This document shows positions 1 through 41,667 of a stretch of 64,000 nucleotides of DNA, piece after piece. The translations under genes were made by a program, and so were the position numbers. The first letter of the stretch is position 1, and each line of letters starts with the position of its first letter. The stretch comes from an uncultured Planctomycetota bacterium (GTDB taxonomy: Bacteria; Planctomycetota; Planctomycetia; Gemmatales; Gemmataceae). The notes beneath the pieces were generated by a model. That model was given only the letters and a program-made list of their open reading frames with translations. It was not told the DNA's origin and searched no databases. The DNA lies in the NCBI GenBank assembly GCA_963849325.1, contig CAWKHF010000005.1:256001-320000 (forward strand). Reading direction: 5' to 3'.

Positions 1-1017
1 CATCGCGTCGATGTCGGGATAATACTCCTTGTAGGCGAGCTTGACGGCGGCCTTGGCGGCCTTGATCTGGTCCGCCAACTTCAGCAGGTCGAGGCGCTGG
101 CTCAAGGCCTGGGCCAGCAGAGCCTGCGGATCGGGCAGCTCATCCTCCACCTGAATCTCCTTGGGAGGCGGCGGCAGAGCGAGGGAGGGAGGGAGCTGCA
201 AGAGCGTGTTGATGCGGGCGATGGCTACCTGTCGCTGCCGTTCCAGGATGATCTCGGCCTCGCGCAGACGGCCGATCTCCACTTCGGCTTGCAGGGGATC
301 CTGCGCGGAGACCTGGCCGTTGGTGAAGCGGGCCTCCGCGTCGCGCTTGAAGCGCCGCACGAGCCGCAGGGCTTCCGCGTTGACCTCCCGCGCCCGATCG
401 ATCAAGTAGTAATCGTAGAACGCATCCCGAGCGCTTTCGAGCAACTGTTGACGCACATTGTCCACGTCGCGGCCGGCGGCGTTGGCCTCGTTCCGGGCGA
501 CCTCGCCGCGCAGCCGCAGCTTTCCGGGCCATTGATACCTCTGGAAGATTTCCAGACGGTAGCCGTTTCCCACTTGCGAGAAGGCCGCCGGCGACAGGTT
601 CGTGCCGAACAGGGGATCGTCCAGCGAAGTTACCTGCGGATAGCGCGCCTGGGCTGCCCTCCAGGCAGCGGCCATCTCGGGCAGCGATGGATTGCGGGCC
701 AGGACGGCCTCGACCAGGGCATCGACCGATAGCTCCGTCCTGTTCTCAAACGGCGGTGCGGTGGAGGAGGGAGTCGAGGCAAGGGGCGGGACGGGGGTAG
801 GCGGAGGTAGATTGGCTTCCGGCGGCGTCGCTTCCTGGTAGGCGACCTGCTGGATTCGCTCCGGTTCCGGGGGAGAGGGATCGCGCTCGGCAACCGCCGT
901 GGCCGGGACGACGGGAGACGTCGCGGGTCTGGGGGAAGAAACAAGCGAGCAGCCCGTCACCAAGGAGAGCAGCAGCACCAGCCAGCACTCCGGCCGCGTT
1001 CCTCGGTGTCGTCGCAT
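1..1017 (-). CDS. TolC-family outer membrane efflux lipoprotein (3' end runs off the window)
   Basis: Manual translation from the ATG at 1017 gives MRRHRGTRPECWLVLLLSLVTGC (lipobox), a Pro-rich linker, then ELSVDALVEAVLARNPSL...QWPGKLRLRGEVA...EYYPD, typical of OEP repeats. GAAGGAGG lies upstream. Not in the ORF track because the frame is open at the edge. Confidence 0.8.
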   Translation of the reverse strand, partial: MRRHRGTRPECWLVLLLSLVTGCSLVSSPRPATSPVVPATAVAERDPSPPEPERIQQVAYQEATPPEANLPPPTPVPPLASTPSSTAPPFENRTELSVDALVEAVLARNPSLPEMAAAWRAAQARYPQVTSLDDPLFGTNLSPAAFSQVGNGYRLEIFQRYQWPGKLRLRGEVARNEANAAGRDVDNVRQQLLESARDAFYDYYLIDRAREVNAEALRLVRRFKRDAEARFTNGQVSAQDPLQAEVEIGRLREAEIILERQRQVAIARINTLLQLPPSLALPPPPKEIQVEDELPDPQALLAQALSQRLDLLKLADQIKAAKAAVKLAYKEYYPDIDAM

Positions 1018-1132
1018 CACGAACCCCCTCCTTCAGCGGAACGTGCCGTCGGTTCGGGCCGTGAGCAATCGGGTTCGCGCTGCTGTCCTTATCGGCATGG
1101 TACAATCGGAACTATCGGGAAAAACGGTCTTC

Positions 1133-1199
1133 TCGTTTAGCCGCGACGCGCAGCGGAGCGCGGGAGTGTCGCGCTCCGCTGCGCGTCGCGGCTAAACGA
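1133..1199. repeat. REP-like palindrome, family A, copy 1
   Basis: GTTTAGCCGCGACGCGCAGCGGAGCGCG-loop-CGCGCTCCGCTGCGCGTCGCGGCTAAAC, perfect arms. Confidence 0.9.
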
Positions 1200-1367
1200 C
1201 ACACCATCGCGGTGAAACGGGGCGCCCTTGCAACGGGAGCGTCCCTGTCCGACAATACCCTTCACCGACTCGCCCGTGCGCGAACCGCGGAGGCCGTGAC
1301 TGCGTAACAGCAGCGTGGCGTCCGTGGCGGAGCGCCCGATCCGCAACCCCCCAACCGTGCGAATGCC

Positions 1368-2416
1368 GTGGACAACCCCAACATCCTGAAGGTCCAAAAC
1401 TTCATCCTCACCTTCAGCAGCATCCTCTACGAGGCGCTGCCGTTCATCATTCTCGGCGCCGTCATCGCCGGCATTCTCGAAGAAATGCTGCCGCAACGGC
1501 TCATCACGCGCTTCTGCCGCGCAGCCGTACCCTGGCCATCGTCCTGGGCGCTCTGCTCGGCCTGATCTTCCCCATGTGCGAGTGCGGCATCATCCCCGTC
1601 ATGCGCCGCCTCATCCGCAAGGGGCTGCCGTTGAGCTGCTGCGTCGCTTACCTGTTGGCCGGGCCGATCATCAATGTCGTCGTCCTGCTCAGCACCTTCG
1701 TCGCCTTCTCGGGCATGGAGAACGCCGTCGAACCGGGCGGCGCTAAGTCGAACCAGATGGGCGGCTGGTGGATGATGGGCTTTCGCGCTGGCCTGGGCTT
1801 CCTCGTCGCCGTCGGCACCGCGCACGTCGTCGAATGGCAGCATCGCAAGTACGGCAGCAAGCTGCTCATGCCCCTGGCCATCCCCAGTTCGCTGCCCTTG
1901 ACCGAGGAAGAGGACGTTGCGGAGGAGAAGCGCTCGGCGTGGCAGCGCCTCAGCAACATCTCCGACACGGCCCTGCACGACTTCATCGACATCACCGTCT
2001 TTCTCATCCTCGGCGCCCTGCTGGCCGCCAGCACGCGGCAACTGGTGACGCAGGAGATGATCGCCGACCTGTCGCGCAATCACACCGTCCTGGCCATCGG
2101 CCTGATGATGCTGCTGGCCATTCTCTTGTGTTTGTGCAGTGAGGCCGACGCCTTCGTGGCCGCCAGTTTCGTGACGCTGCGGCCGTCGGCCAAGCTGGCC
2201 TTCCTGGTGCTCGGCCCCATGCTCGATCTCAAATTGTACCTGATGTACACGCGCGTCTTCCGCCCGCGCTTGATTTACACCATCTTTCTGTCGGTCATCG
2301 TCCAGGTGTTCGCTTGGTCTTACGTCACGCACCTGTTCTGGGAGCAGCTACGCTTCGCAACTCCTGTCGGCGCACGCTCTCGGCACCGCGACCGCAATCG
2401 CTCGGCGCCCCCGTAA
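1368..2416 (+). CDS. Permease (DUF318/YcgR-like), frameshift near 1513
   Basis: EALPFIILGA, P-MCECGIIPV and LCSEADAFVA motifs spread over two frames (ORFs 1368-1565 and 1574-2416). Confidence 0.8.
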
Positions 2417-2508
2417 GTCGAGGAGGTCCGTCTTATGGTCCACGAGCACTCGTGTCTTGACTGGAAGGAACTTCGACAAATCATTCGTCGCGTAGAGGAG
2501 GTTTCTCT

Positions 2509-3423
2509 CATGGCCAGATCACGATCACGCGCACGGCGACCGCAACGCCTATTACCTCAACCAACTCTTCACCATCGCCGTGTGCGGCGCGCTCGGCGGC
2601 GTCGCCGTCATGCTGTGGTATAGCGGCAATCTGAGGTTCATGCTGGCCTCGAAATTCTTTATCTGGGTGTTCCTCGGCGGCGTCACCCTGCTGGCGCTGG
2701 TGCTGGTCCGCGCCGTCGCCGTCTGGCACTCCGTCGATGCAAACCCGTCCCCGGACACGAGCACATTGCGATCACGATCACGAACATTCGACGGACGCAC
2801 GATCACGGCCACGGCGATCTGCTGACCACGATCACGACCACGATCACGGACATGGCCACGGAGACGACCACGGCCACGATCACGGCTGGGCGCCGTGGCG
2901 TTACGTCGTCTTGCTCTTGCCGGTGGTGCTGTATTTCCTGAACCTGCCCAACCAGGGCTTCACGGCCGACGTCGGCGACAATCCGCTGCTGAACCTGGAT
3001 TTGAAGACGCCGACGGCCGTTCGTTCGACGGGGATGGCGACGGTCGGTTTCGCGGAATTGCAGCAAGCGTCGCTGACGCTGGAAAGCCGCGATTACTACG
3101 AGGGCAAAACCATCACACTGACCGGCCAATATGCCGGCGACGATCCGAAACGCTTCACCCTGGTGCGTTACAAGATCGCCTGTTGCGCCGCCGACGCCGT
3201 GCGGCTCAACGCCGTCATCATGATCGATCCCGACTCGTCGGAGAAAATCGACCCGGACAAGTATCGCAATCAGTGGGTCGAGGTGAAGGGCCGCGTCCAC
3301 TTCTTCCCGAAGCCGGGCGGCAACGAATACATCACGGCGTTGATCCTGTACCCGACCAAGGACGAGCCGCTCGACCAGTTTGCCAAGATCATCCCGCCGC
3401 CGGCGACGCCGTGGGTGAACTGA
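2509..3423 (+). CDS. TIGR03943/DUF1980 (YcgQ-like) membrane protein with His/Asp-rich linker; several frameshifts
   Basis: N-terminal TM helices, a DHDHDHDHGHGHGDDHGHDHG run, and C-terminal RYKIACCAADA and WVEVKG motifs; directly downstream of the permease. Confidence 0.75.
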
Positions 3424-3446
3424 TCGTGGGGCTTAGCGAGGAATCC

Positions 3447-3501
3447 GAGCCGCGACCGTTAGGGAGCGGGGGCGTTTCCCGCTCCCTAACGGTCGCGGCT
3501 C
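3447..3501. repeat. REP-like palindrome, family B
   Basis: GAGCCGCGACCGTTAGGGAGCGGG...CCCGCTCCCTAACGGTCGCGGCTC between convergent genes. Confidence 0.9.
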
Positions 3502-4546
3502 AGCGCGTCGTGAGCCGCAAACGGCGAATCGTCTCGGCGGCGCGTTCGGCCTGCGCCGCCGACACGTCCAGATGCGTGCAGGCGCGCAAGCGTTGAGGAC
3601 CGGCTGCGTGGACCAGTACGCCGCGCTCGCGCAGTGCCGCCGCCACGTCTTTCGCCGTGCCCAGGCCGCGATCCACCCGGAACCAGATCAGGTTCGTCTC
3701 CACCTCCGGCGGCGTCAGCTCCAGCCCCGGCGTGTCGGCGATGGCGCGGGCGATCAGTTGCGCATGGCGATGGTCCTCGGCCAGGCGCTCGACGTGGTGA
3801 TCGAGGGCGTACAGCGCCGCCGCGGCCAGCACGCCGGCCTGCCTCATGCCGCCGCCGAACAATTTGCGGATGCGCCGCGCTCGCGCCACGAACTCTCTCG
3901 GTCCCGCCAGCGCCGAGCCGACCGGCGCTCCCAGTCCCTTGCTGAAGCACACCGACACCGTGTCGAACATTTCGGCCCACTCGTTGGCGGCGATGCCGGT
4001 GGCGACGACGGCGTTCCACAGCCGCGCCCCGTCGAGATGCAGGATCAAGCCATGCTTGCGCGTCCAGGCGTGGATGGCCTGGATTTTCTCGAAGGGGTAG
4101 ACGCGGCCGCCGCCGCGGTTGTGCGTGTTCTCCAGGCACACCAGCCGCGTCCGGACCTGGTGAGCGTCGTCGGGCCGGACCTGATCTTCCAGCTGGCTGA
4201 CGTCGAGGATACCGTCGTCGCCAGCGAGCGTGTGGCAGGTGACGCCGCTGAGTACGGCCGGGCCGCCGGCCTCATAGTTGTAAATGTGACAATTGACATC
4301 GCACAAGAGCTCGTCGCCCGGCTGCGTATGGACCTTGACGGCGATCTGGTTGGACATGGTGCCCGACGGCACGAACAGGGCGGCTTCCTTGCCGAGCCGC
4401 TGGGCGACGTGCTCTTCCAGGCGGTTGACGGTGGGGTCTTCGTGGAAGACGTCGTCGCCGACCTCGGCGGCGTGCATGGCGGCGCGCATGGCCGGCGTCG
4501 GCCGGGTCACGGTGTCGCTGCGCAGGTCGATCATCGGTTCCGGCAT
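3500..4546 (-). CDS. ltaE: Low-specificity L-threonine aldolase
   Basis: [29 protein letters not shown] and CFSKGLGAP (PLP lysine). Confidence 0.93.
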
Positions 4547-4578
4547 GAGCGTGCTCCATCCTTCTGAAGTGTGCGGAA

Positions 4579-4640
4579 GTTTAGCCGCGACCGCGCAGCG
4601 GCAGTGCGCGTTACTGCCGCTGCGCCGTTCGCGGCTAAAC
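4579..4640. repeat. REP-like palindrome, family A, diverged copy
   Basis: GTTTAGCCGCGA...TCGCGGCTAAAC ends with an inner stem GCGCAGCGGCAGT/ACTGCCGCTGCGC. Confidence 0.8.
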
Positions 4641-4642
4641 GA

Positions 4643-5077
4643 TTACTTTGACTTACTACGATGTTCCATGAACCAGCGGCCGTTGTCCTTGTGGAAACAC
4701 AGGCGGCGGTCGTTGTCCTTCAGACGCACGGCGACGCGGTCCTTGTCCTCCTGCCAGTCGCCGTCCTTGAGGAAGCGCTGCAAGAGCTTGACCGTGAGCG
4801 AATCGAGCCGGGCGCGCGTGTCCTCGACCTGTCCCTCGAAGCGGCCGCCGTACAGCCGCTTGACGCGATCGTCCACGAAGGCCGGCTCGGCGAGTTGGGC
4901 GACGACGTAATCGACGCGCCGGGCCTCGACCGCCTTGAGGACGGAGTCCAGCGTTTCCTTGGCCGTGCTCTGCGGATAGGTCCGCAAGTCCGGGGCGATG
5001 CCGTAGCGCGTGGCGCTCTCGGCCCCACTACTCAGCACGACCAGCGATCCCAGCAACACGCCGACATACGTATTCAT
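4643..5077 (-). CDS. Hypothetical secreted protein
   Basis: MNTYVGVLLGSLVVLSSGAES signal-like N-terminus and typical codon usage; start could be 5083. Confidence 0.65.
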   Translation of the reverse strand: MNTYVGVLLGSLVVLSSGAESATRYGIAPDLRTYPQSTAKETLDSVLKAVEARRVDYVVAQLAEPAFVDDRVKRLYGGRFEGQVEDTRARLDSLTVKLLQRFLKDGDWQEDKDRVAVRLKDNDRRLCFHKDNGRWFMEHRSKSK

Positions 5078-5223
5078 GCTCATCCACTCCGTTTTCGTCG
5101 CGGCGACACCACTCTTCTGCTTGTAACAGGAACCGGCCGGCGCGGCAACCGTGCGAACGAAACTTCGCCGTGTCCTGGCCCTCCCGCGCCCGGAGGAAAA
5201 TACCAACGATCTCTCTTTTGTCA

Positions 5224-5252
5224 TTGACAGCCCCATCCACGAGACCTACAGT
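5224..5252 (+). promoter_or_regulatory. Sigma70-type promoter for the DUF1559 gene
   Basis: TTGACA-17 nt-TACAGT, ending 45 nt upstream of the ATG at 5298. Confidence 0.55.
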
Positions 5253-5297
5253 CAAGCCGTTCCGACACATCACCTGTCTTGGATAAGGGAGAGGGCC

Positions 5298-6298
5298 ATG
5301 GTCGCCAAGCGTGCCGCTTTCACCTTGATCGAGTTGCTGGTGGTGATCGCCATTATCGCCATCCTCATCGGCCTGCTCTTGCCGGCCGTGCAGAAAGTGC
5401 GCGAGGCGGCCGCCCGTGTCCAGTGCGGCAACAATCTCAAACAACTGGCCCTCGCCATTCACAACTGCCACGACACCAACGGCAAAATGCCCCCCGCCGT
5501 CGGCTTCTTCCCGGGGACGTCCCTTCAACCCGGAGCGGCCTTCGGCGTCGGCCTCTTCCACCTGCTGCCCTACGTCGAGCAGGGCAACCTGTACGCCAGC
5601 TCTCAGGGGACGCTCTTCGGCGTGCCCGGCGTGTATTGTCCCGACAACAATGGCGTGTATTCTCGGCCGGTCAAGACGTTCGTCTGTCCGGCCGACCCCA
5701 GCGTCGGCGGCAACGGCACGGTGCAGGATCCCGGCGGCAGCGGCGTCGTTTGGGGTGTCTCCAATTACGCCTTCAATTCGCTGCTTTTCTGTGCCCAGAA
5801 CGGCATCAACTACACCACGCCGCCGACGGCTAACGGCCAAAGCGTCGATCCGCAGGGGATGGCGACCATTCCCGCTTCCATCCCCGACGGCCTGTCGAAC
5901 ACGATCTTGGCGGCCGAGAAGTACGCTCTCTGCACCAATGGCGCCAGCAGTGGCACCTTTGGACCCTACGGCGGGAGTTACTGGGCCTTCAGCGCCGTGC
6001 CTTCGCCGTCCCTGGCGCAGCCGATGGCGACTCCCCTGCCGGTTTATCCGGGCTTCGAGATCTCGTTCTTCGCGCCTATTCGGGGACCGTCATCGGGCCG
6101 GCGTCCAAGTTCCAGGTGCAGCCCAATCCGTACAAGGGCAACTGCGATCCTTTCCGCGCCTCCTCGCCGCATACGAACGTGATGGTTACCGCCCTGTGCG
6201 ATGCCAGCGTTCGCAACCTGTCGTCGGCGATCAGTCCGAATACCTGGTGGTGGGCCTGCACGCCTTCCGGCGGCGAAGCGCTCCCGTCCGACTGGTAA
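5298..6298 (+). CDS. DUF1559 prepilin-type protein, frameshift near 6080
   Basis: [41 protein letters not shown] and DGLSNT..AEK; the C-terminus ([17 protein letters not shown]) is in another frame. Confidence 0.88.
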
Positions 6299-6307
6299 GG
6301 AGGTGGC

Positions 6308-6703
6308 ATGACTTCTCGACTCGTGGCGGCGTTCGTTCTGTTGGATCTGCTGTCGCTGCTGGCGGGTTGCGGACGCGGCTGGGGGCAGGTCTCTGGCACG
6401 GTGCGCTACAAAGGCCAGGCGCTGCCCAATGGCACCATCACCTTCTACGATGAGGCCAACCAGCCCGTCTCCAGTCCCATTGACGCCGACGGCAAGTACG
6501 CGGTGGACAAGGTCGCTGCCGGCAAGGTCAAGATCACCGTTACCGCTCCCATGCCCATCTACCTGCCGGGCGACCCGAAGCGTTTCGAGAAGCCGCCGGC
6601 CAACATGCCGAACTTGCCCGCCCGCTACGCCGATGCCGAACAATCGGGACTAAATCGGACGGTGAAAGCGGGCAGCCAAACTCTCATCCTCGACCTCGAT
6701 TGA
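6308..6703 (+). CDS. Lipoprotein with a carboxypeptidase-regulatory-like domain (usual DUF1559 partner)
   Basis: LAGC lipobox, VSGTVRYKGQALPNGTITF and LPARYAD..SGL. Confidence 0.8.
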   Translation: MTSRLVAAFVLLDLLSLLAGCGRGWGQVSGTVRYKGQALPNGTITFYDEANQPVSSPIDADGKYAVDKVAAGKVKITVTAPMPIYLPGDPKRFEKPPANMPNLPARYADAEQSGLNRTVKAGSQTLILDLD

Positions 6704-7094
6704 ATCAACGGAGCCGTTTTTCGTCGTGGGAGCCATCGCCGGTGGGTAGCCGGGCCCGTGAGACCGTGGGGCAAAGAAGGGAGAGCGGTACGATTAGTGC
6801 TACCTCTACCCGCCACTCCTTTTCGATTCTCGAATGGCTTCAAGGCGCGTGATATGCTTCCGAAGAGCCTGCTTGAGTGCGAAGCAGAATGGCTCTAACT
6901 GTCCGCCCGCATTCTCGGCCTCTTCCAGACTTGCCAATCGTCTGCGAGCCGCGGCTAAATCGAGTAGAGGCGGATTTCTTCCGGGCCATTGCAGTGTCGC
7001 GTTGATGGCTTCCTTACGAAGCTGGACTGCTCCCCAAAAAGTGGTCCAGGTGCTATGAGAGTCTCTGAGGCTCTTCGCGGGCAGGAGACGAACC

Positions 7095-7367
7095 ATGAAA
7101 CGACACACGGCCGAAGAGATCATCCCCAAGCTGCGACAAGCCGAGGCCGACCTCGCCCAAGGCTTGACCCTCGCCCAGGTCTGCCAACGCCTGGCCATTA
7201 GCGAGCAGACCCTGCATCGCTGGCGCAACCAGTACGGCGGACTCAAGCAAGACGAGGCCAAACGCCTCAAGGAACTGGAAGCCGAGAACGCACGCCTCAA
7301 GCGTCTGGTCGCGGAACTGGCCCTGGACAAGCAGATGCTCCAGGAGGTCGCCCAAAAAAAGTGCTGA
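7095..7367 (+). CDS. IS3 transposase OrfA (HTH)
   Basis: ISEQTLHRWRNQYGG..EAKRLKELEAENARLKRLVAEL; A7G slippery run at 7354-7361. Confidence 0.9.
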   Translation: MKRHTAEEIIPKLRQAEADLAQGLTLAQVCQRLAISEQTLHRWRNQYGGLKQDEAKRLKELEAENARLKRLVAELALDKQMLQEVAQKKC

Positions 7368-8272
7368 GCGCCGACCAGCGTCGTCAGGTCGTGCGTCAAC
7401 TCCAAGAGACCTTCGGCGTGTCGCAACGTCGCGCCTGCCGTGTGCTGGGGCAACCACGCTCCACGCAGCGGCAGACGCCCCAAACCTCCGAGGAGGAGGG
7501 ACGATTGGTGCAGCGGATGTTGGCGATGGTGCGGCAGCATCCGCGTTGGGGCTACCGCCGCATCACGGTGTTGCTGCGGCGGGAAGGCTGGCGTGTCAAC
7601 CGCAAGCGGGTGTACCGACTGTGGCGGCAGCAAGGGCTGAAAGTACCCCGAAAGCAGCGAAAAAAACGGCGGCTGGGTCACAGCGGCAACAGTTGCGTGC
7701 GGCGGCCGGCAGAGCACAAGGACCACGTGTGGACGTGGGATTTCTTGCACGATCGGACGAGCGATGGCCGGCCTTTGAAATGGTTCACGCTGATCGACGA
7801 GTACAGCCGCGAGTGCTTGGCGTTGGAGGTGGATCGGGGCATGACGGCCCAGGCGGTGAAGACGGTGCTGGCGAGCGTGGTGCAGCAGCGTGGCGTACCG
7901 ATGCACGTCCGCAGCGACAACGGCTCGGAGTTTATCGCCGCCGCCATCCGGACGTGGATGACGGCTGCGGGGTTGGAGACGTTGTACATTGCTCCGGGCG
8001 CGCCGTGGGAAAATGGCTACGCCGAGTCGTTCAACAGCAAGGTGCGGGACGAGCTGTTGAACACGGAGGAGTTTGGCAGCGTGGCAGAAGCGAAGGTGCT
8101 AGCCAAGGAGTGGCGTCAGGAATACAACCATGTCCGTCCTCACAGTTCGTTGGGGTATCGGACGCCAGCGGAGTTCGGGGAGATGTGTCCTCGTCCCGAC
8201 TCCGCTGCGCTACGCCGGGACGAGGACACATCTGTAACGGTTGATCCGACTCTCACAGCGCCTGGTACATAA
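7361..8272 (+). CDS. IS3 transposase OrfB (DDE integrase core), probably fused to OrfA by -1 frameshift
   Basis: WGYRRI, WTWDF, RSDNGSEF, PWENGYAESFN and YNHVRPHSSLGYRTP. Confidence 0.92.
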   Translation: MLSADQRRQVVRQLQETFGVSQRRACRVLGQPRSTQRQTPQTSEEEGRLVQRMLAMVRQHPRWGYRRITVLLRREGWRVNRKRVYRLWRQQGLKVPRKQRKKRRLGHSGNSCVRRPAEHKDHVWTWDFLHDRTSDGRPLKWFTLIDEYSRECLALEVDRGMTAQAVKTVLASVVQQRGVPMHVRSDNGSEFIAAAIRTWMTAAGLETLYIAPGAPWENGYAESFNSKVRDELLNTEEFGSVAEAKVLAKEWRQEYNHVRPHSSLGYRTPAEFGEMCPRPDSAALRRDEDTSVTVDPTLTAPGT

Positions 8273-17250: not shown

Positions 17251-18904
17251 TTAGCCACCCTGGGCGATCAGGTAGCGGTCCAGGTATTCGCGCAGCGCCT
17301 CCCACGATGCCGGCTGGCTGCGAAAGCCCAGGTAGCCGTCCGGACGCACCAGCGCCAGCGCCGTCTCGCGGACACCAAGAAGGGAGCGAACCGAACCGCC
17401 GGAGTCCCACCACACCGACGCGAAGCCATCGCGCTTGTCGGCCGGGATGTCGCCGGGCGCGAGCAGATGGACGCGGAGCAGCCCCGGATACGCCGCCTCC
17501 ACGCGCCGCTGAATGTCGCCCAGCGCCGCGGTGCCGGCGGCGTCGGTCGCGGCCGGCAACAACAGGAGATGGTGCTGGGGACCACGCAGCACGGCGAGCA
17601 AGCGATGCTCCCGGCCCGTTCCCGGCTCGCGCAGCCGGGTGTCCGGCACGCGGTCGCCGGGATGGATGCTGCCGGATGTCCAGTTCGCGCCGGATTCGCC
17701 GTTGAGCGGACTGTGCGGATAATGCACCGCCATCTCGGACAGGCCGCGGACGAAGGCGCGCTGGAAGGGTGGCAGACGTCCCAGCAAGCCGACCAGGCGA
17801 TTGCGGAAGAACTGGCCGACCGGGTTGCGCAGAATGGCCACCCGCGTCAAGCGGGCGGCGTTGCGCAGCACCATCTCGCCGACTTCGCCGCGCTCTTGAC
17901 TGTAACTATCGAGCAGCGGCGACGGCCGAGCGCGACCGGCCTGGACCAAGGCGAGTTTCCAGGCGAGGTTCCAGGCATCCTGCATGCCGGTATTCATGCC
18001 CTGGCCGCCGGCCGGACTGTGAATGTGGGCCGCGTCACCGGCCAGGAAGGCCCGGCCTCGCCGATAGTCGGCCACCTTGCGCCTCGTGGATGCGGAAGCC
18101 CGACAACCAGTGCGGCTCGGACAGGCGCACCCCGGCGGGACCACGTCTGTCCACGATCGCCTGTACCTCGGCCAGCGACGGGTTGGGCGGATGTTCGGCA
18201 CTGCTGGCCAACCCCATGTCGGCGATGATGCGGAAACGGTCGGCGAATGGGAAGAACGCCAGCACTCCCTTGGCGTGCCAGAACAAGCTCAGCTCGTCGC
18301 GCGGGATCGGACCCTCGACGTGGCAGTCGGCCAAGATCCAATCGTTCGGCTCCGCTTCGCCGGTGAACGCCAGTCCCAGCTTCTTGCGGACGGTGCTGTG
18401 CGCTCCATCGCAGCCGAGCAGCCAGTCGCAGCGGACGGATTCCTCGCGGCCGTCCGCGTGTCGCAGCACGGCGACGACGTGATCGCCGTGGTCACTGAAG
18501 TCCGTCAGTTCCACGGGACGTTCGACGTGTACGCCCACGCGCTGCAAGTGCTCGGTGAGCAGCCGCTCGGTTTCGTTCTGGGCGAGCATGAGCGGCCGGG
18601 CATACTCGGTGCCGGCCGGGGCGGGCGTAATGCGGACCAGCAGACGCCCTCCGCCGTGGAGCCGGACGGCATTGAGCAACATGCCGGTGTTCAAAAAGTC
18701 GCCGACGATGCCGAGATCGTCGAGCATCTCCAGGGAGCGGCCCCACAGCACCAGCGCCTTGGACTTGTCCGAAGGCGCCGGGTTGCGGTCGATGAGGCGG
18801 CAGGGCAAGCCGTGATGGTGCAGGTGCGCGGCCAGGGTCAGTCCCACCGGGCCGGCCCCGACCACGAGCGCAGTGCAAGCAGCGGTCGGCGGAGGAGCAG
18901 TCAT
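17251..18904 (-). CDS. FAD-dependent monooxygenase (PheA/TfdB/UbiH type), frameshift near 18083
   Basis: VGAGPVGL, GCDGAHSTVR, LAGDAAHIHSPAGGQGMNTG and LVRPDGY across two frames. Confidence 0.88.
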
Positions 18905-18982
18905 GCGGTTCCGTCCGTAAAGGCGGGCGACAGGGATGGTGTCCCGACCGGACACCTCTCGCCATTATGACGAGGAGGCGTC

Positions 18983-29290: not shown

Positions 29291-30478
29291 GTGGCGCCGC
29301 GACGCCGTCCGCTTCCACCCCCTTCGCTTGACGAACCCGCCGCGCTGCGTCCCTGGCTGGCCCGCCGTCTGCGTCCGTGGTTCCTCCGCCATCAGCGCGA
29401 TTTGCCCTGGCGCCGCGACCGCGATCCGTACCGCATCTGGGTCAGCGAGGTCATGCTCCAGCAGACCCAGGTCGGCCACGGTCATCCCCTACTTCGAGCG
29501 CTTCGTCCGCGCCTTCCCGACGCCGGCCGGTCCTGGCCGCGGCCGACGAGCAGGACGTGCTGCGCCTGTGGGAGGGACTGGGTTACTATCGCCGTGCCCG
29601 CGATCTGCACCGTGCCGCTCGCCAACTCGTCGCGCGGCACGCCGGCCAATTTCCCGACGATCCCGTTGCGCTGGCCGATCTGCCCGGCCTGGGCCGATAC
29701 ACTCGCAACGCCGTCCTGTCGCAAGCCTTCGACCGCCGACTGCCGATCCTCGAGGCCAACAGCCAGCGCGTGCTGAGCCGGCTGTTCGGCCGGGCCGACG
29801 ATCCGCGTCAGGGTGCGGCGCGGCGCTGGCTGTGGCAGGCCGCCGAGGACATCCTGCCGCGCCGCGACGTCGGCACCTTCAATCAAGCAGTCATGGAGCT
29901 TGGCGCTCTTGTTTGTACGCCATCGGCGCCGCGCTGTTCCGACTGTCCGTTGGCGGCGCGCTGTGTCGCTCGGCAACTCGGCCAGCAAGAGTCGATTCCC
30001 GCCCGGACGCCCGCTCCCGAGACCACGCGCCTCGCGCGAAGTCGCCGTGGTCGTCTGTCGCGGTTCGAGCGTGCTGCTGGCGCAGCGGCCCGGCGGCGGC
30101 CGCTGGGCCGGATTGTGGGAGTTCCCGCACGGCGCCTTGCTCGACGGCGAAGTACACGAGGACGCCGCCGGCCGACTGGTCCGCGACCTGACCGGGCTGC
30201 ACGCGCGTCCCGGACCCGAGTTGTTGACCATCCGCCACGGCATCACGCGCTATCACATCACCATGACCTGCTTCGAGGCCGCGTACCTCGCCGGCGATTT
30301 CCGCTCGGATTTTTACGTCGAGGGCCGCTGGCTGGCCGCCGCCGACCTCGCCGCTTACCCCGTCAGTTCTCCCCAGCGCCGCCTGGCCCGCTTCCTTCTT
30401 TCTCCCAGCCGCCAACGCTGCCTGTTCGGATCGACGCTGACAGCGGACGGCCGAGACGGTAGCATGAGAGAAGGATAA
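29291..30478 (+). CDS. mutY: A/G-specific adenine glycosylase, about three frameshifts
   Basis: [31 protein letters not shown], the ELGALVC..P.C..CP...C Fe-S motif and GLWEFP. Confidence 0.92.
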
Positions 30479-30512
30479 GGGGAAATAAAGACCTGTAGCG
30501 GGGGAGAGAGTT

Positions 30513-31047
30513 ATGCGGACCCTGTTCGCGCGCGACGGCGCTGCTCGTGGTGGGAGCGGTGCTGGCCGGCTGCATTTCCACCAGCACCAATACGGGGCTG
30601 AGCAAGGGCAAGCCGGCCGCCAACATCCGCGGCCGCGATGCCGACGGCGAAGCGTTCCAGCTCGACGACTATCGCGGCAAGGTCGTGCTGCTGGACTTCT
30701 GGGCCTCGTACTGAGGGCCGTGCCGGAGCATGTTTGCTCACGAGCGGTCGCTCGTGGAGAAGTTCCAGAACAAGCCCTTCGTGCTGCTCGGCGTCAACGT
30801 CGATGAAACCCGTGACGAACTTCAGCTCATACAGCGGAAAGAGAAGCTGAACTGGCGCTCGTGGTGGGATGGGGCAGGTGGACCGATCGCGCTGCAATGG
30901 AAGCTGCAAAGTCTGCCAACGCTCTTTCTACTCGATCACAAGGGCGAGATTCGCTGGCGGAGCGCCGGCGTCCCCGACCCCAAGCGCATGGATGAACTGA
31001 TCGAGCAGCTCGTCCAGGAGGCGGAGGCGTCCGGCAAGTCCACCTAG
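30513..31047 (+). CDS. TlpA/redoxin lipoprotein with in-frame TGA (probable selenocysteine, UGPC); 1-nt indel near 30530
   Basis: LAGC lipobox, then LDDYRGKVVLLDFWASY-TGA-GPCRSMFAHERSLV...PTLFLLDHKGEIR in a single frame. Confidence 0.8.
30726..30739 (+). promoter_or_regulatory. Candidate bacterial SECIS hairpin
   Basis: GAGCA-TGTT-TGCTC after an 11-nt spacer following the TGA at 30712-30714. Confidence 0.55.
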
Positions 31048-31061
31048 GGCGCGTCGAGGAT

Positions 31062-31127
31062 GGCGAACGGCCGGCGTTAGCCGGCTGGTACAGGCTCCAA
31101 CCAGCCGGCTAACGCCGGCCGTTCGCC
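31062..31127. repeat. REP-like palindrome, relative of family C
   Basis: GGCGAACGGCCGGCGTTAGCCGGCTGGT...ACCAGCCGGCTAACGCCGGCCGTTCGCC. Confidence 0.88.
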
Positions 31128-39725: not shown

Positions 39726-40064
39726 TCACGATTCCAGGGCGCGGTTGAGCATCTTGACCAGGTTGTCCATCGGCTGGTTGCCGATTTGCTTGTCGATCGG
39801 CTGATCGCCGCCCTTGAAGAGCAGGACCTGGGGGATGGCGGAAATGCCGTACTTGACGGCGATTTCGGGGGCTTCGTCGGTGTTGAGCTTGCCGACCTTG
39901 ACCTTGCCGGCGAACTGGTCGGCGATCTTGTCGATCGTCGGCGCCAGCATCCGGCACGGACCGCACCAGACGGCCCAGAAGTCCACCAGGACGGGTTTCT
40001 CGCTCTGCACGACTTCCTTTTCCCAGTTCGCCGCCGTCAGCTCGATCACGTTGGCGCTCGCCAT
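39726..40064 (-). CDS. trxA: Thioredoxin
   Basis: VLVDFWAVWCGPCRMLAP. Confidence 0.95.
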   Translation of the reverse strand: MASANVIELTAANWEKEVVQSEKPVLVDFWAVWCGPCRMLAPTIDKIADQFAGKVKVGKLNTDEAPEIAVKYGISAIPQVLLFKGGDQPIDKQIGNQPMDNLVKMLNRALES

Positions 40065-40205
40065 GCCCTTCCGCCTTTCTGAAATCGCGTTCCTCGGTTG
40101 ATTGCCACGGGAGGTTCGCACCCGTCTTTATCGACATTATACGGAGGCGGCGTCAAGTGGCACAACGCGGACACTCCGGCCGAAGCGCGGACACGGGGAA
40201 GATGG

Positions 40206-41667
40206 TCAGCTCAGGGGGTACAGCGGCCTGCGGATGTGCCGGTAGGTGAAGCGCTCGGGATTGACGGCGGTAAGTCCCGGCGTGTCCACTTCGAGGATGG
40301 TGCCGGCGAGAGGAGCGTAAGCCGCCTTGTAGGCGATGGCCGCCTTGACGACGAGGATGCGCTGCTCGTGCGGCCGAATGCCCAGGCAGGTGAGCTGGCC
40401 GAGACTGAACGGCGGATGCCGCAGCGAGTTGAGGACGAGCCAGTTGCGGCCGGGCAATTCGACCAGGGCGGTGGCGCCCATGTGGTTGAGGCGCCGGCCG
40501 CCGTGCCGCACTTCCGGCTCGATGTAGGTGCCCTCGTGCAAGCAGACGGACGCGGCCCGTCAGCGACAACGGTTCGCCGTGCAGCCGATCGACCTTGCCG
40601 CCAACCGTCAGCGACACGTCGGCCTCGACGCCCGCCGCGGCGCAGTGCCGGACTTCCTCGGGTGCATACAGGCAGACAACGCTGTCGGTCGCGCCCTGCC
40701 GCAGCAGCTCGCGCAACAGCGTGGTGCCGTCGCCGGCGGAGCCGCCGCCGACGTTATCGCCGGTATCGACCAGCACGACCGGCCGTTTCTCGGCGCAGCG
40801 CCTCGGCGACCGCCGTCGCCGCATCCGGCAACGGCATGGCGAACTGCTCGCGCGCCTGCCACAAATCCTCCGCCAGCCGATCCGCGGCGCGGCGAGCGTA
40901 GCTCGGGATCGCCGTCGGCGACGACGAGGACCGACGGACCCATCTGCGGCACGTCGGCGTAGGCGAAGCCGGGCAGCAGGCTGACGGCGAGGATGCCCGG
41001 CTCCCGCTCCAGGGCACGGGCCGCTTCCATGAAGGGACGCAGCGGCGGCCGCGAGGTGTCGTGGGCCATGATGTTGACGAGCAGCGGCGGTTTCGCCAGC
41101 GCCAGGCATGGCCGGACCTCGCCGCGCAAGCGGCGCACCAGCAGATGGGCCGCGCGCCGGCCGCACTCGCGCTGATCGACGTGCGGGCAAGTGCGATACG
41201 CCACGGCCACGTCGCAATGATCGACCAGGCGCTGCGACAGGTTGCCGTGCAGGTCGAGCGTGACAGCGATGGGCAATTCGCGGCCGACGGCACGGCGCAG
41301 GCGGGCCAGCACCTCGCCGTCGGCGTCGAGATGCGATGACGCCACCATCGCCCCGTGCAGGGCGAGTAGCAAGCCGTCCGGCCGGCTGGCGCGGAGCAGG
41401 TCGCACAGGCGCTCCGGTGATTTCGTCGAAGACCGCATCCGTCACCGGCCCGGCCGGCGTCGCCCAGGCCATCAGCAGCGGCACCGGCTCGAAACCCTCG
41501 ATGCTCGCCGCCTCGATGAAACCGCCGACCTCGTGGTGCGCGTCGCGCCACTCGCCGAGCAGGTCGGCGCCGGCGGTCAGGCTCTGGGCGGTGAAGGCGG
41601 CGCGGTCGGTGAGCAGGGGATTGAAGGTGTTCGACTCGTGCATGAAGCCGGCGATGGCGAGGCGCAT
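40206..41667 (-). CDS. M81-family (MlrC-like) metallopeptidase, several frameshifts
   Basis: HESNTF, LALHGAM, LDLHGN, PHVD, DTGDNVGGG and ILVVKAAI across frames. Confidence 0.85.

Follow-up and report, generated by a model that had tools for sequence, protein, structure and literature searches.

We find that a stretch of DNA of 64,000 nucleotides (nt) from an uncultured Planctomycetota bacterium of the Gemmataceae (contig CAWKHF010000005.1, positions 256,001 to 320,000; hereafter the window, in whose own numbering positions are given) very likely carries a real selenoprotein gene, which would encode an exported redox lipoprotein similar to TlpA and ResA, with selenocysteine (Sec, U) at an in-frame TGA codon. 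This redoxin very probably belongs to a large family, found in Planctomycetota and Verrucomicrobiota, the genes of which are routinely mis-annotated. Within the coding sequence, downstream of the UGA, lies a conserved hairpin with a GGUC loop, and it is likely that this hairpin is the selenocysteine insertion sequence (SECIS) of the gene.

An in-frame TGA at the active site of a redoxin gene

The frame that contains the redox motif opens after a TAG codon at 30496 (from 30499) and closes with the TAG at 31045-31047, and the TGA at 30712-30714 is its single internal stop. With TGA read as U, the translation runs ..GKVVLLDFWASY-U-GPCRSMFAHERSLV.. and, over a longer stretch, ..ALLVVGAVLAGCISTSTNTGLSKGKPAANIRGRDADGEAFQLDDYRGKVVLLDFWASY-U-GPCRSMFAHERSLVEKF.., on to ..EAEASGKST. 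Three Pfam families, AhpC-TSA (64.2 bits, threshold 26), Redoxin (56.9, threshold 26.6) and Thioredoxin_8 (51.7, threshold 27), match the read-through protein above their gathering scores, and all three matches extend across the TGA. In a phmmer alignment, U pairs with the first Cys of FWASWCGPC in the solved DsbE-like protein 3gl3. Translation, alignment and domain matches thus agree with an initial annotation of this DNA, made from the sequence and a list of its open reading frames (ORFs), which had placed a TGA exactly at the first Cys of the motif DFWASY-U-GPC and had seen homology continue in the same frame.

In an AlphaFold2 model built on a 32-row alignment (mean pLDDT, the predicted local distance difference test, 88.9), U is residue 60; a strand (50-56) precedes it and the first long helix begins at 61. 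The motif is placed as in TlpA/ResA/DsbE-like reductases, at the start of the first long helix and after the strand ..VVLLDFW. The best matches of the model in the PDB are the Bacillus thiol-disulfide oxidoreductase 4nmu, ResA, a Chlorobium DsbE-like protein, CcmG, Etrx2 and TlpA, with target-normalised TM-scores of up to 0.93. The NCBIfam cut-offs for ResA (71.2 vs 170), TlpA (48.4 vs 230) and DsbE (46 vs 123.15) are not reached; the redoxin is of the same fold and kind as these three proteins but an orthologue of none of them. No NCBIfam model reaches its cut-off for the redoxin, the seleno-redoxin models NF041054 (WAxxUGC_long; 28.6 vs 300) and NF053656 (redoxin_TUGYCR; 23.5 vs 100) included. 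Both are thioredoxin-fold models with a U-containing motif in their names, the motif of the redoxin being W-A-S-Y-U-G-P-C.

Relatives were collected in two ways. A search of a protein collection returned 349, of which 120 were listed and classed by a motif script, and a scan of species-representative genomes gave 448 confirmed relatives, of which 78 loci were fetched and compared (66 labelled Planctomycetota, 10 Verrucomicrobiota and 2 Pseudomonadota). The homologous codon is TGA in 70 of the 78 loci and TGC or TGT in 8. With tandem copies included there are 77 distinct TGA-bearing genes, the window gene among them, and neither TAA nor TAG occurs at the homologous codon across these 77 genes and 78 loci. 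Because the same codon is TGA in 70 of 78 related loci, a chance TGA is excluded. In five loci (L001-L005) the gene order is that of the window (solute-binding protein, FHA protein, mutY, redoxin) and all five have the TGA; L001 and L002 have downstream genes, too, in common with the window. Reassignment of TGA throughout the genome is likewise excluded, because TGA is the commonest ordinary stop in the window: the ordinary stops of 34 of the 35 Pfam-supported ORFs checked comprise 15 TGA, 12 TAG and 7 TAA. A script scan of the window for in-frame TGA codons yielded five raw candidates, and only the redoxin gene has a redox motif.

Among the 120 listed homologues, 51 carry CxxC, 64 begin directly after the motif and 5 belong to neither class, so that C-terminal fragments outnumber full-length forms. 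The 64 fragments include the window's own 105-amino-acid piece (P0009), and 44 of them start exactly with MFAHERSLV. Two of the four homologue clusters that bear NCBI names, both from metagenome-assembled genomes (MAGs) of Gemmataceae, are fragments of this kind, called 'hypothetical protein' and 'TlpA disulfide reductase family protein'. Seven full-length Cys forms (P0003-P0008 and P0010) are 57-78% identical to the window protein, P0003 at 78%. At the level of sequence, this pairing of Sec and Cys forms among homologues is the classic pattern. The initial annotation had proposed a Sec-containing protein whose gene would be split by gene callers, and had named Cys/TGA pairs in homologues as a check. 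The pairs exist and the split is plain in the protein collection, and the Sec reading itself is supported by the preponderance of TGA over Cys codons, the homology on both sides and the conserved hairpin described below.

A FastTree tree of 198 redoxin domains (140 Sec-type, 58 Cys; 104 columns) needs at least 17 changes between Sec and Cys, only 2 of which are forced by supported branches. The tree is too weakly resolved to give the ancestral state (Sec or Cys) or to place the window, and no direction of change is drawn from it. Distant members of the family have N-terminal extensions of 250-450 amino acids or a C-terminal one of ~240. Several family copies may lie close together, two within 20 kb in L026, L052 and L072 and three in L053. 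The two loci labelled Pseudomonadota (L035, L036) come from a MAG labelled Alcaligenaceae and hold Sec-form family members; the label could reflect a binning or labelling problem, or gene transfer.

As judged from its orthologues, the gene starts at 30513, and the window copy carries a +1 shift. The syntenic orthologues have N-termini of the pattern MRTL..LLLGVALIGC; that of L001 reads MRTLARMLSMLLLGVALIGC.. (MRTLARMLSMLLLGVALIGCISTSTNTGLSKGK..), and those of L003-L005 are similar. In a DNA alignment, L001, L003 and L004 have a one-column gap at window position ~30528, that is, the window has one extra base. The initial annotation had given the interval 30513-31047 and overlooked this frameshift: because the ATG at 30513 is out of frame (+1 shift), the interval is not one open frame even when the TGA is read through. 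We regard the frameshift as most likely an assembly indel and not gene decay. Once it is corrected, the N-terminus has a short basic stretch, a hydrophobic core and an L-A-G-C lipobox (..LLVVGAVLAGC..), a pattern also found in L001-L005, L011 and the Cys-form homologues P0003-P0008 and P0010. Such an N-terminus fits a bacterial lipoprotein signal peptide, and export is predicted by this pattern match, with the frameshift correction needed in the window copy. The lipobox, the orthologue N-termini and the predicted ResA/CcmG/TlpA fold would all suit the exported lipoprotein that had been proposed at the outset.

A conserved hairpin downstream of the UGA

The GGUC hairpin extends from +28 to +45 counted from the U of UGA. 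Its loop (30746-30749) lies 31 nt past the UGA, and the hairpin sits 13 nt beyond another one, with a UGUU loop, that the initial annotation had singled out. Folded alone it has a free energy of -10.5 kcal/mol (z -3.97). RNAalifold, run on 66 sequences, gives no other helix in its consensus. Of the cells of the hairpin 96.3% are paired, versus 14-43% when the 3' partner is slid along the alignment. Its 16-nt core, ACGAGCGGTCGCTCGT, occurs in 73 copies in 67 of the 78 loci, always at +29 from the TGA. The other three Sec loci have a single deviating base, which produces a G-U wobble in L063 and in L065 and a GGAC loop in L047. The window has no second site for the core, even with up to 2 mismatches. 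In L033, a single ORF contains two in-frame TGA codons (1565 and 2609) at a distance of 348 codons. The 16-nt core follows each of them, and the arrangement points to a product with two Sec residues and two redoxin domains.

The conservation extends to synonymous positions. The hairpin encodes H-E-R-S-L-V with fixed codons (GAG 77/77, CGG 77/77, TCG 76/76, CTC 76/77); for the same amino acids elsewhere in those genes the counts are 430/819 for GAG, 175/684 for CGG, 137/583 for TCG and 361/928 for CTC, and third positions outside the hairpin are only 36-65% conserved. The 8 Cys forms keep between 1 and 6 of the 7 pairs and never the GGUC loop. In them the Ser of the hairpin is replaced by E, K, T or A, and where H-E-R is kept the Arg codon may be CGG, CGC, CGA or CGT. 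The case for the putative structure rests on these frozen synonymous sites, on the perfect self-complementarity and on the contrast between Sec and Cys forms.

The bacterial SECIS model given in a review has a loop of 3-9 nt with G in the first two loop positions, a stem of 4-16 base pairs (bp), a spacing of 16-37 nt and a minimum free energy of at most -7.5 kcal/mol (PMC13188914). With a 4-nt loop starting GG, a 7-bp stem, a spacing of 31 nt and the energy given above, the GGUC hairpin lies within this model. A positional control is provided by selD of a verrucomicrobial locus, L049. This gene has an in-frame TGA of its own at the canonical position (..SCAG-U-ASK..), and the hairpin downstream of it has 9 bp and a GUC loop; the spacing there, 33 nt, is close to that of the GGUC hairpin. 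A scan of the whole window at Rfam gathering scores gave 0 matches, and with E<=10 the interval 30600-30900 gave two chance-level matches only; no described RNA family covers the hairpin.

Evidence against and alternative explanations

Several observations weigh against a selenoprotein gene here, or against the GGUC hairpin as its SECIS. None of selA, selB, selC and selD lies within the 64-kb window, as searched with Pfam on 78 ORFs, Rfam and ARAGORN: the Pfam search found no Sec-machinery domain and ARAGORN 0 tRNAs. Among the neighbours there is no CcdA/DsbD gene and no client gene that would point to a substrate. If the frameshift near 30528 is real, the window copy is a pseudogene. In the poorly resolved tree, the rows nearest to the window by path are the Cys forms P0004, P0006 and P0005, and a Cys codon at 30712 would not be out of place at that position. 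As to the hairpin, it displays no compensatory covariation; 0 pairs change on both sides, which makes such counts uninformative here. The window's 45 nt past the UGA, taken alone, prefer a longer fold, which sequesters the 3' arm of the GGUC hairpin. The hairpin also departs from the E. coli fdhF element, the upper stem of which begins 11 nt past the UGA, requires a bulged U17 in the 5' arm and presents adjacent G and U in a small apical loop (PMC8659212). Both elements lie in the ORF, downstream of the UGA, and both have adjacent G and U in a small loop, but the GGUC hairpin is not of the fdhF type: it begins ~25 nt past the UGA and has a perfect 7-bp stem without a bulge.

The Sec machinery is found in relatives. 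In L049, selB, a transglutaminase-like gene, selA, a HEAT-repeat gene, selD and tRNA-Sec stand in a row (921-7708, minus strand), divergent from the redoxin family member of that locus and beginning ~0.5 kb from it. Its selB, selA and selD score 338, 494 and 376 bits with the NCBIfam equivalog models, all above cut-off, and its tRNA-Sec is matched by ARAGORN and by Rfam (62.3 bits vs 47). When SelA, SelB and SelD of L049 were compared by tblastn with the window and the 78 loci (1.19 Mb), the only match was SelA in L055. This locus is part of a complete Gemmataceae chromosome; its SelA scores 572.7 bits against a cut-off of 267.9, and its family member at the locus is a Cys form. Kim et al. 2016 list selA, selB, selC and selD in Gemmata obscuriglobus and Isosphaera pallida (PMC4807772, Table S8), and a transglutaminase-core gene is also reported there in the Sec operon of the planctomycete P2 (PMC4807772). 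We infer that the source genome of the window has the machinery as well.

Might the gene be a selenoprotein gene with a different SECIS, namely the UGUU hairpin or the whole 41-nt fdhF-like fold? The initial annotation had proposed the UGUU hairpin, and the element itself stands as described, with 5 bp (30726-30730 with 30735-30739), a loop at 30731-30734 and an 11-nt spacer from the UGA; extended by two pairs, it folds at -7.5 kcal/mol. The window's minimum-energy fold (-26.2 kcal/mol over 64 nt; -23.3 kcal/mol over 45 nt, z -3.19) has this element at its tip and is one long hairpin from the UGA to +42 with its upper stem at +13 to +31 and the UGUU loop, G then U, at +20 to +23. Both the spacing of 11 nt and the GU in the loop agree with the E. 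coli element as described (PMC8659212), the loop spacing of 16 nt is just inside the range of the bacterial model (PMC13188914), and L002 folds like the window. As a SECIS, however, the UGUU hairpin does not hold up in the family: its four inner pairs form in 19, 12, 15 and 7 of 65 distinct sequences, the stem is missing from the syntenic orthologues L003-L005, and over the whole long fold 67% of cells pair, no better than column shuffles (mean 67.6%). Because the 5' arm of the long fold varies freely (GGN or CCN codons) whereas its 3' arm is frozen and perfectly self-complementary, the local GGUC hairpin fits better than the long one, and we think it improbable that either form of the fdhF-like fold serves as the SECIS.

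Other explanations dispense with Sec altogether. What is really a Cys-form gene could have received its TGA through an error of assembly or sequencing or by a recent nonsense mutation, or the copy could be a pseudogene with both a frameshift and a stop. The assembly is indeed error-prone, as seen from the 1-nt insertion in the redoxin gene, a mutY homologue in three frames and split monooxygenase and MlrC-like genes. Close Cys forms exist, P0003 and also P0007, which has the same ASY context, and the tree position mentioned above speaks for the same view. Yet every error that can be checked, the redoxin +1 and those of mutY included, is an indel, as the initial annotation had asserted for the window, and a substitution would need to have changed this exact wobble base to A, the state of 70 of 78 relatives and of all five syntenic orthologues. 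The hairpin linked to the TGA in the family is intact in the window (7/7 pairs, GGUC loop), the G+C content at third codon positions stays high on either side of the TGA (0.90 and 0.82), and housekeeping genes are frameshifted too, which argues for assembly error and not for decay of the redoxin gene. We therefore hold an erroneous or degenerate TGA to be very unlikely. Hardly credible in our view is that the UGA terminates translation, leaving a 66-amino-acid lipoprotein stub and a 105-amino-acid protein from the ATG at 30730, or that it is read as a standard amino acid without Sec machinery. The second piece is predicted by gene callers, the family conserves its ATG (89-98% identity in columns 19-21) and the window lacks the machinery. 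Against this, neither piece would work as a redoxin, since the stub would stop one residue short of the active site and the other would have neither signal peptide nor nucleophile; from the full-length Cys forms the two parts are seen to be one domain; TGA is the commonest ordinary stop in the window; and the stop at the homologous codon is always TGA.

Coordinates of the features of the redoxin gene and of the adjacent inverted repeat are collected in Table 1. The syntenic neighbours of the gene are mutY, the FHA protein, the solute-binding protein and small unknown ORFs, and no cytochrome-c-maturation or Sco/CoxB gene context is present at the locus. The homologue of mutY (A/G-specific adenine glycosylase; 29291-30478, plus strand) is spread over three window frames, and the matched segments of L001 all start in one frame; two assembly indels are the probable cause. 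A FAD-binding monooxygenase gene (17254-18964, minus strand) has FAD_binding_3 profile positions 2-220 and 266-349 on two overlapping ORFs, and in an MlrC/M81-like gene (40153-41667, minus strand) the MlrC_C domain is split over two ORFs; both genes look frameshifted, which fits an indel-rich assembly. An ordinary thioredoxin gene (39729-40127, minus strand; Pfam Thioredoxin, 108 bits) lies 9 kb from the Sec redoxin. Upstream of the redoxin, a sigma-70-like promoter match (30437-30465, plus strand; CTGACA, a 17-nt spacer and TAGCAT; 9/12, a consensus match only) ends 48 nt 5' of the ATG at 30513, within the 3' end of mutY. The inverted repeat past the redoxin stop is possibly a bidirectional terminator hairpin; no T-run follows it, no consensus terminator was called, and no second copy of the repeat was found in the window.

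Table 1. Positions of the redoxin gene, its elements and the adjacent repeat in the window
Feature	Position	Strand	Evidence
Whole redoxin gene: ATG, 1-nt insertion at ~30528, in-frame putative Sec codon, TAG	30513..31047	+	Frames, orthologue N-termini, indel alignment, domain matches
Start codon (MRTL..), out of frame with the remainder of the gene in the assembly	30513..30515	+	Orthologue N-termini, DNA alignment
One extra base (+1 shift) in a GCGCGCG run; probably an assembly indel	30525..30535	+	Alignment with three orthologues
Predicted lipobox L-A-G-C closing the signal peptide; Cys codon 30571-30573	30562..30573	+	Pattern match only
UGA, very likely Sec; first position of the U-G-P-C redox motif (motif 30712-30723)	30712..30714	+	Translation, 3gl3 alignment, TGA in 70/78 loci
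Hairpin GAGCA-UGUU-UGCUC, present but not conserved	30726..30739	+	Folding, family alignment
105-amino-acid C-terminal piece (MFAHERSLV..), a separate protein under standard gene calling	30730..31047	+	ORF list; P0009 100% identical, 105 amino acids
Hairpin CACGAGC-GGUC-GCUCGUG, probable SECIS; 7-bp stem	30739..30756	+	RNAalifold, folding, synonymous-site constraint
Perfect 28-bp inverted repeat, 10-nt loop, 14 nt past the redoxin stop, between convergent genes	31062..31127	.	Repeat search

Proposed mechanism, known relatives and meaning

We propose that the product is a lipoprotein of ~175 amino acids with a TlpA/ResA/CcmG-like extracytoplasmic thioredoxin fold, in which Sec would replace the N-terminal nucleophilic Cys of CxxC to give U-G-P-C. 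By analogy with described Sec systems, SelB with GTP and Sec-tRNA(Sec) would be tethered at the UGA by the SECIS within the coding sequence, such that Sec is inserted instead of termination taking place. The GGUC hairpin is the best SECIS candidate and would be the site bound by SelB; its sequence would also dictate the peptide H-E-R-S-L-V after the active site. The precursor would be exported unfolded and lipidated at the Cys of L-A-G-C, and the mature protein, to go by its fold and family, would face the periplasm. There the selenol/thiol pair may reduce disulfides or sulfenic acids of periplasmic clients, forming an internal selenenylsulfide that is presumably re-reduced by a membrane electron shuttle of the CcdA/DsbD type.

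Proteins of the same fold are well known. ResA, CcmG (DsbE) and TlpA (1st9, 2b1k, 1jfu/4txo, 3gl3) have a motif of the W-C-G-P-C type at the same position and are membrane-tethered or exported; they use Cys, whereas the redoxin would use Sec and scores far below their NCBIfam cut-offs. The pneumococcal Etrx2 (2yp6, 4hqz), a structural match to the redoxin at E ~1e-11, is likewise a lipoprotein-anchored, TlpA-like extracytoplasmic thioredoxin, but it is Cys-based, where the redoxin would be Sec-based, and comes from a Gram-positive organism. Etrx2 feeds methionine sulfoxide reductase. Likened by description only, the redoxin also resembles a predicted selenoprotein family of CDD cd02966, which we take to be the TlpA-like family, as both have a redoxin domain with Sec first in UxxC. 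In the review that lists it, this 'Thiol-disulfide isomerase-like protein' is a bioinformatic prediction with UxxC and of unknown function (PMC13188914, its reference 59), and the review text holds 0 words starting with 'Planctomycet' or 'Verrucomicrob'. Relative to the cd02966 family, the descriptions of an invariant GGUC hairpin, of a HERSLV signature and of a lipoprotein form come from the present analysis.

Predictions of selenoproteins among thioredoxin-fold reductases go back to the mid-2000s, and one such study lists a 'Prx-like thiol:disulfide oxidoreductase' and a 'Thiol:disulfide interchange protein' as selenoproteins (PMC1794560). Nearer to the window in taxonomy, the planctomycete P1 has two 'thiol-disulfide isomerase-like thioredoxin' candidates that are split around an in-frame UGA and have a Cys protein (Singulisphaera) as closest match (PMC4807772, Table S9). 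In the same source they are scored 'SECIS: no' with bSECISearch defaults (PMC4807772). Compared by description only, they share with the redoxin the planctomycete origin and the two adjacent ORFs around an in-frame UGA. In the literature searched, no work on the Planctomycetota selenoproteome or on this redoxin family was found. TlpA-like selenoproteins with UxxC are thus already known; the frozen hairpin across two phyla and the scale of the mis-annotation may be undescribed.

A further question is, how far does this family extend? It is conceivable, though we hold this only tentatively and would not expect it to be borne out in full, that the redoxin belongs to a paralogue-rich clade of exported seleno-redoxins across two phyla, all copies of which have the frozen 16-nt SECIS core at a distance from the UGA that exceeds the one in E. 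coli by ~13 nt, that the clade is largely unannotated, and that it is possibly the main selenoprotein family of both phyla. If this is true, SelB of both phyla would recognize the hairpin in a sequence-specific manner, and HERSLV would be imposed by RNA and not by protein chemistry.

The findings on the redoxin do not overturn current knowledge. A profile of the family, combined with the 16-nt hairpin, would let annotation pipelines rescue hundreds of genes. The occurrence of Sec and Cys forms side by side amounts to a natural experiment on what Sec contributes in an exported reductase, and the frozen hairpin indicates that an RNA signal can fix a protein motif. As for the organisms themselves, the family points to selenium as a component of the periplasmic redox defences of many Planctomycetota and Verrucomicrobiota.

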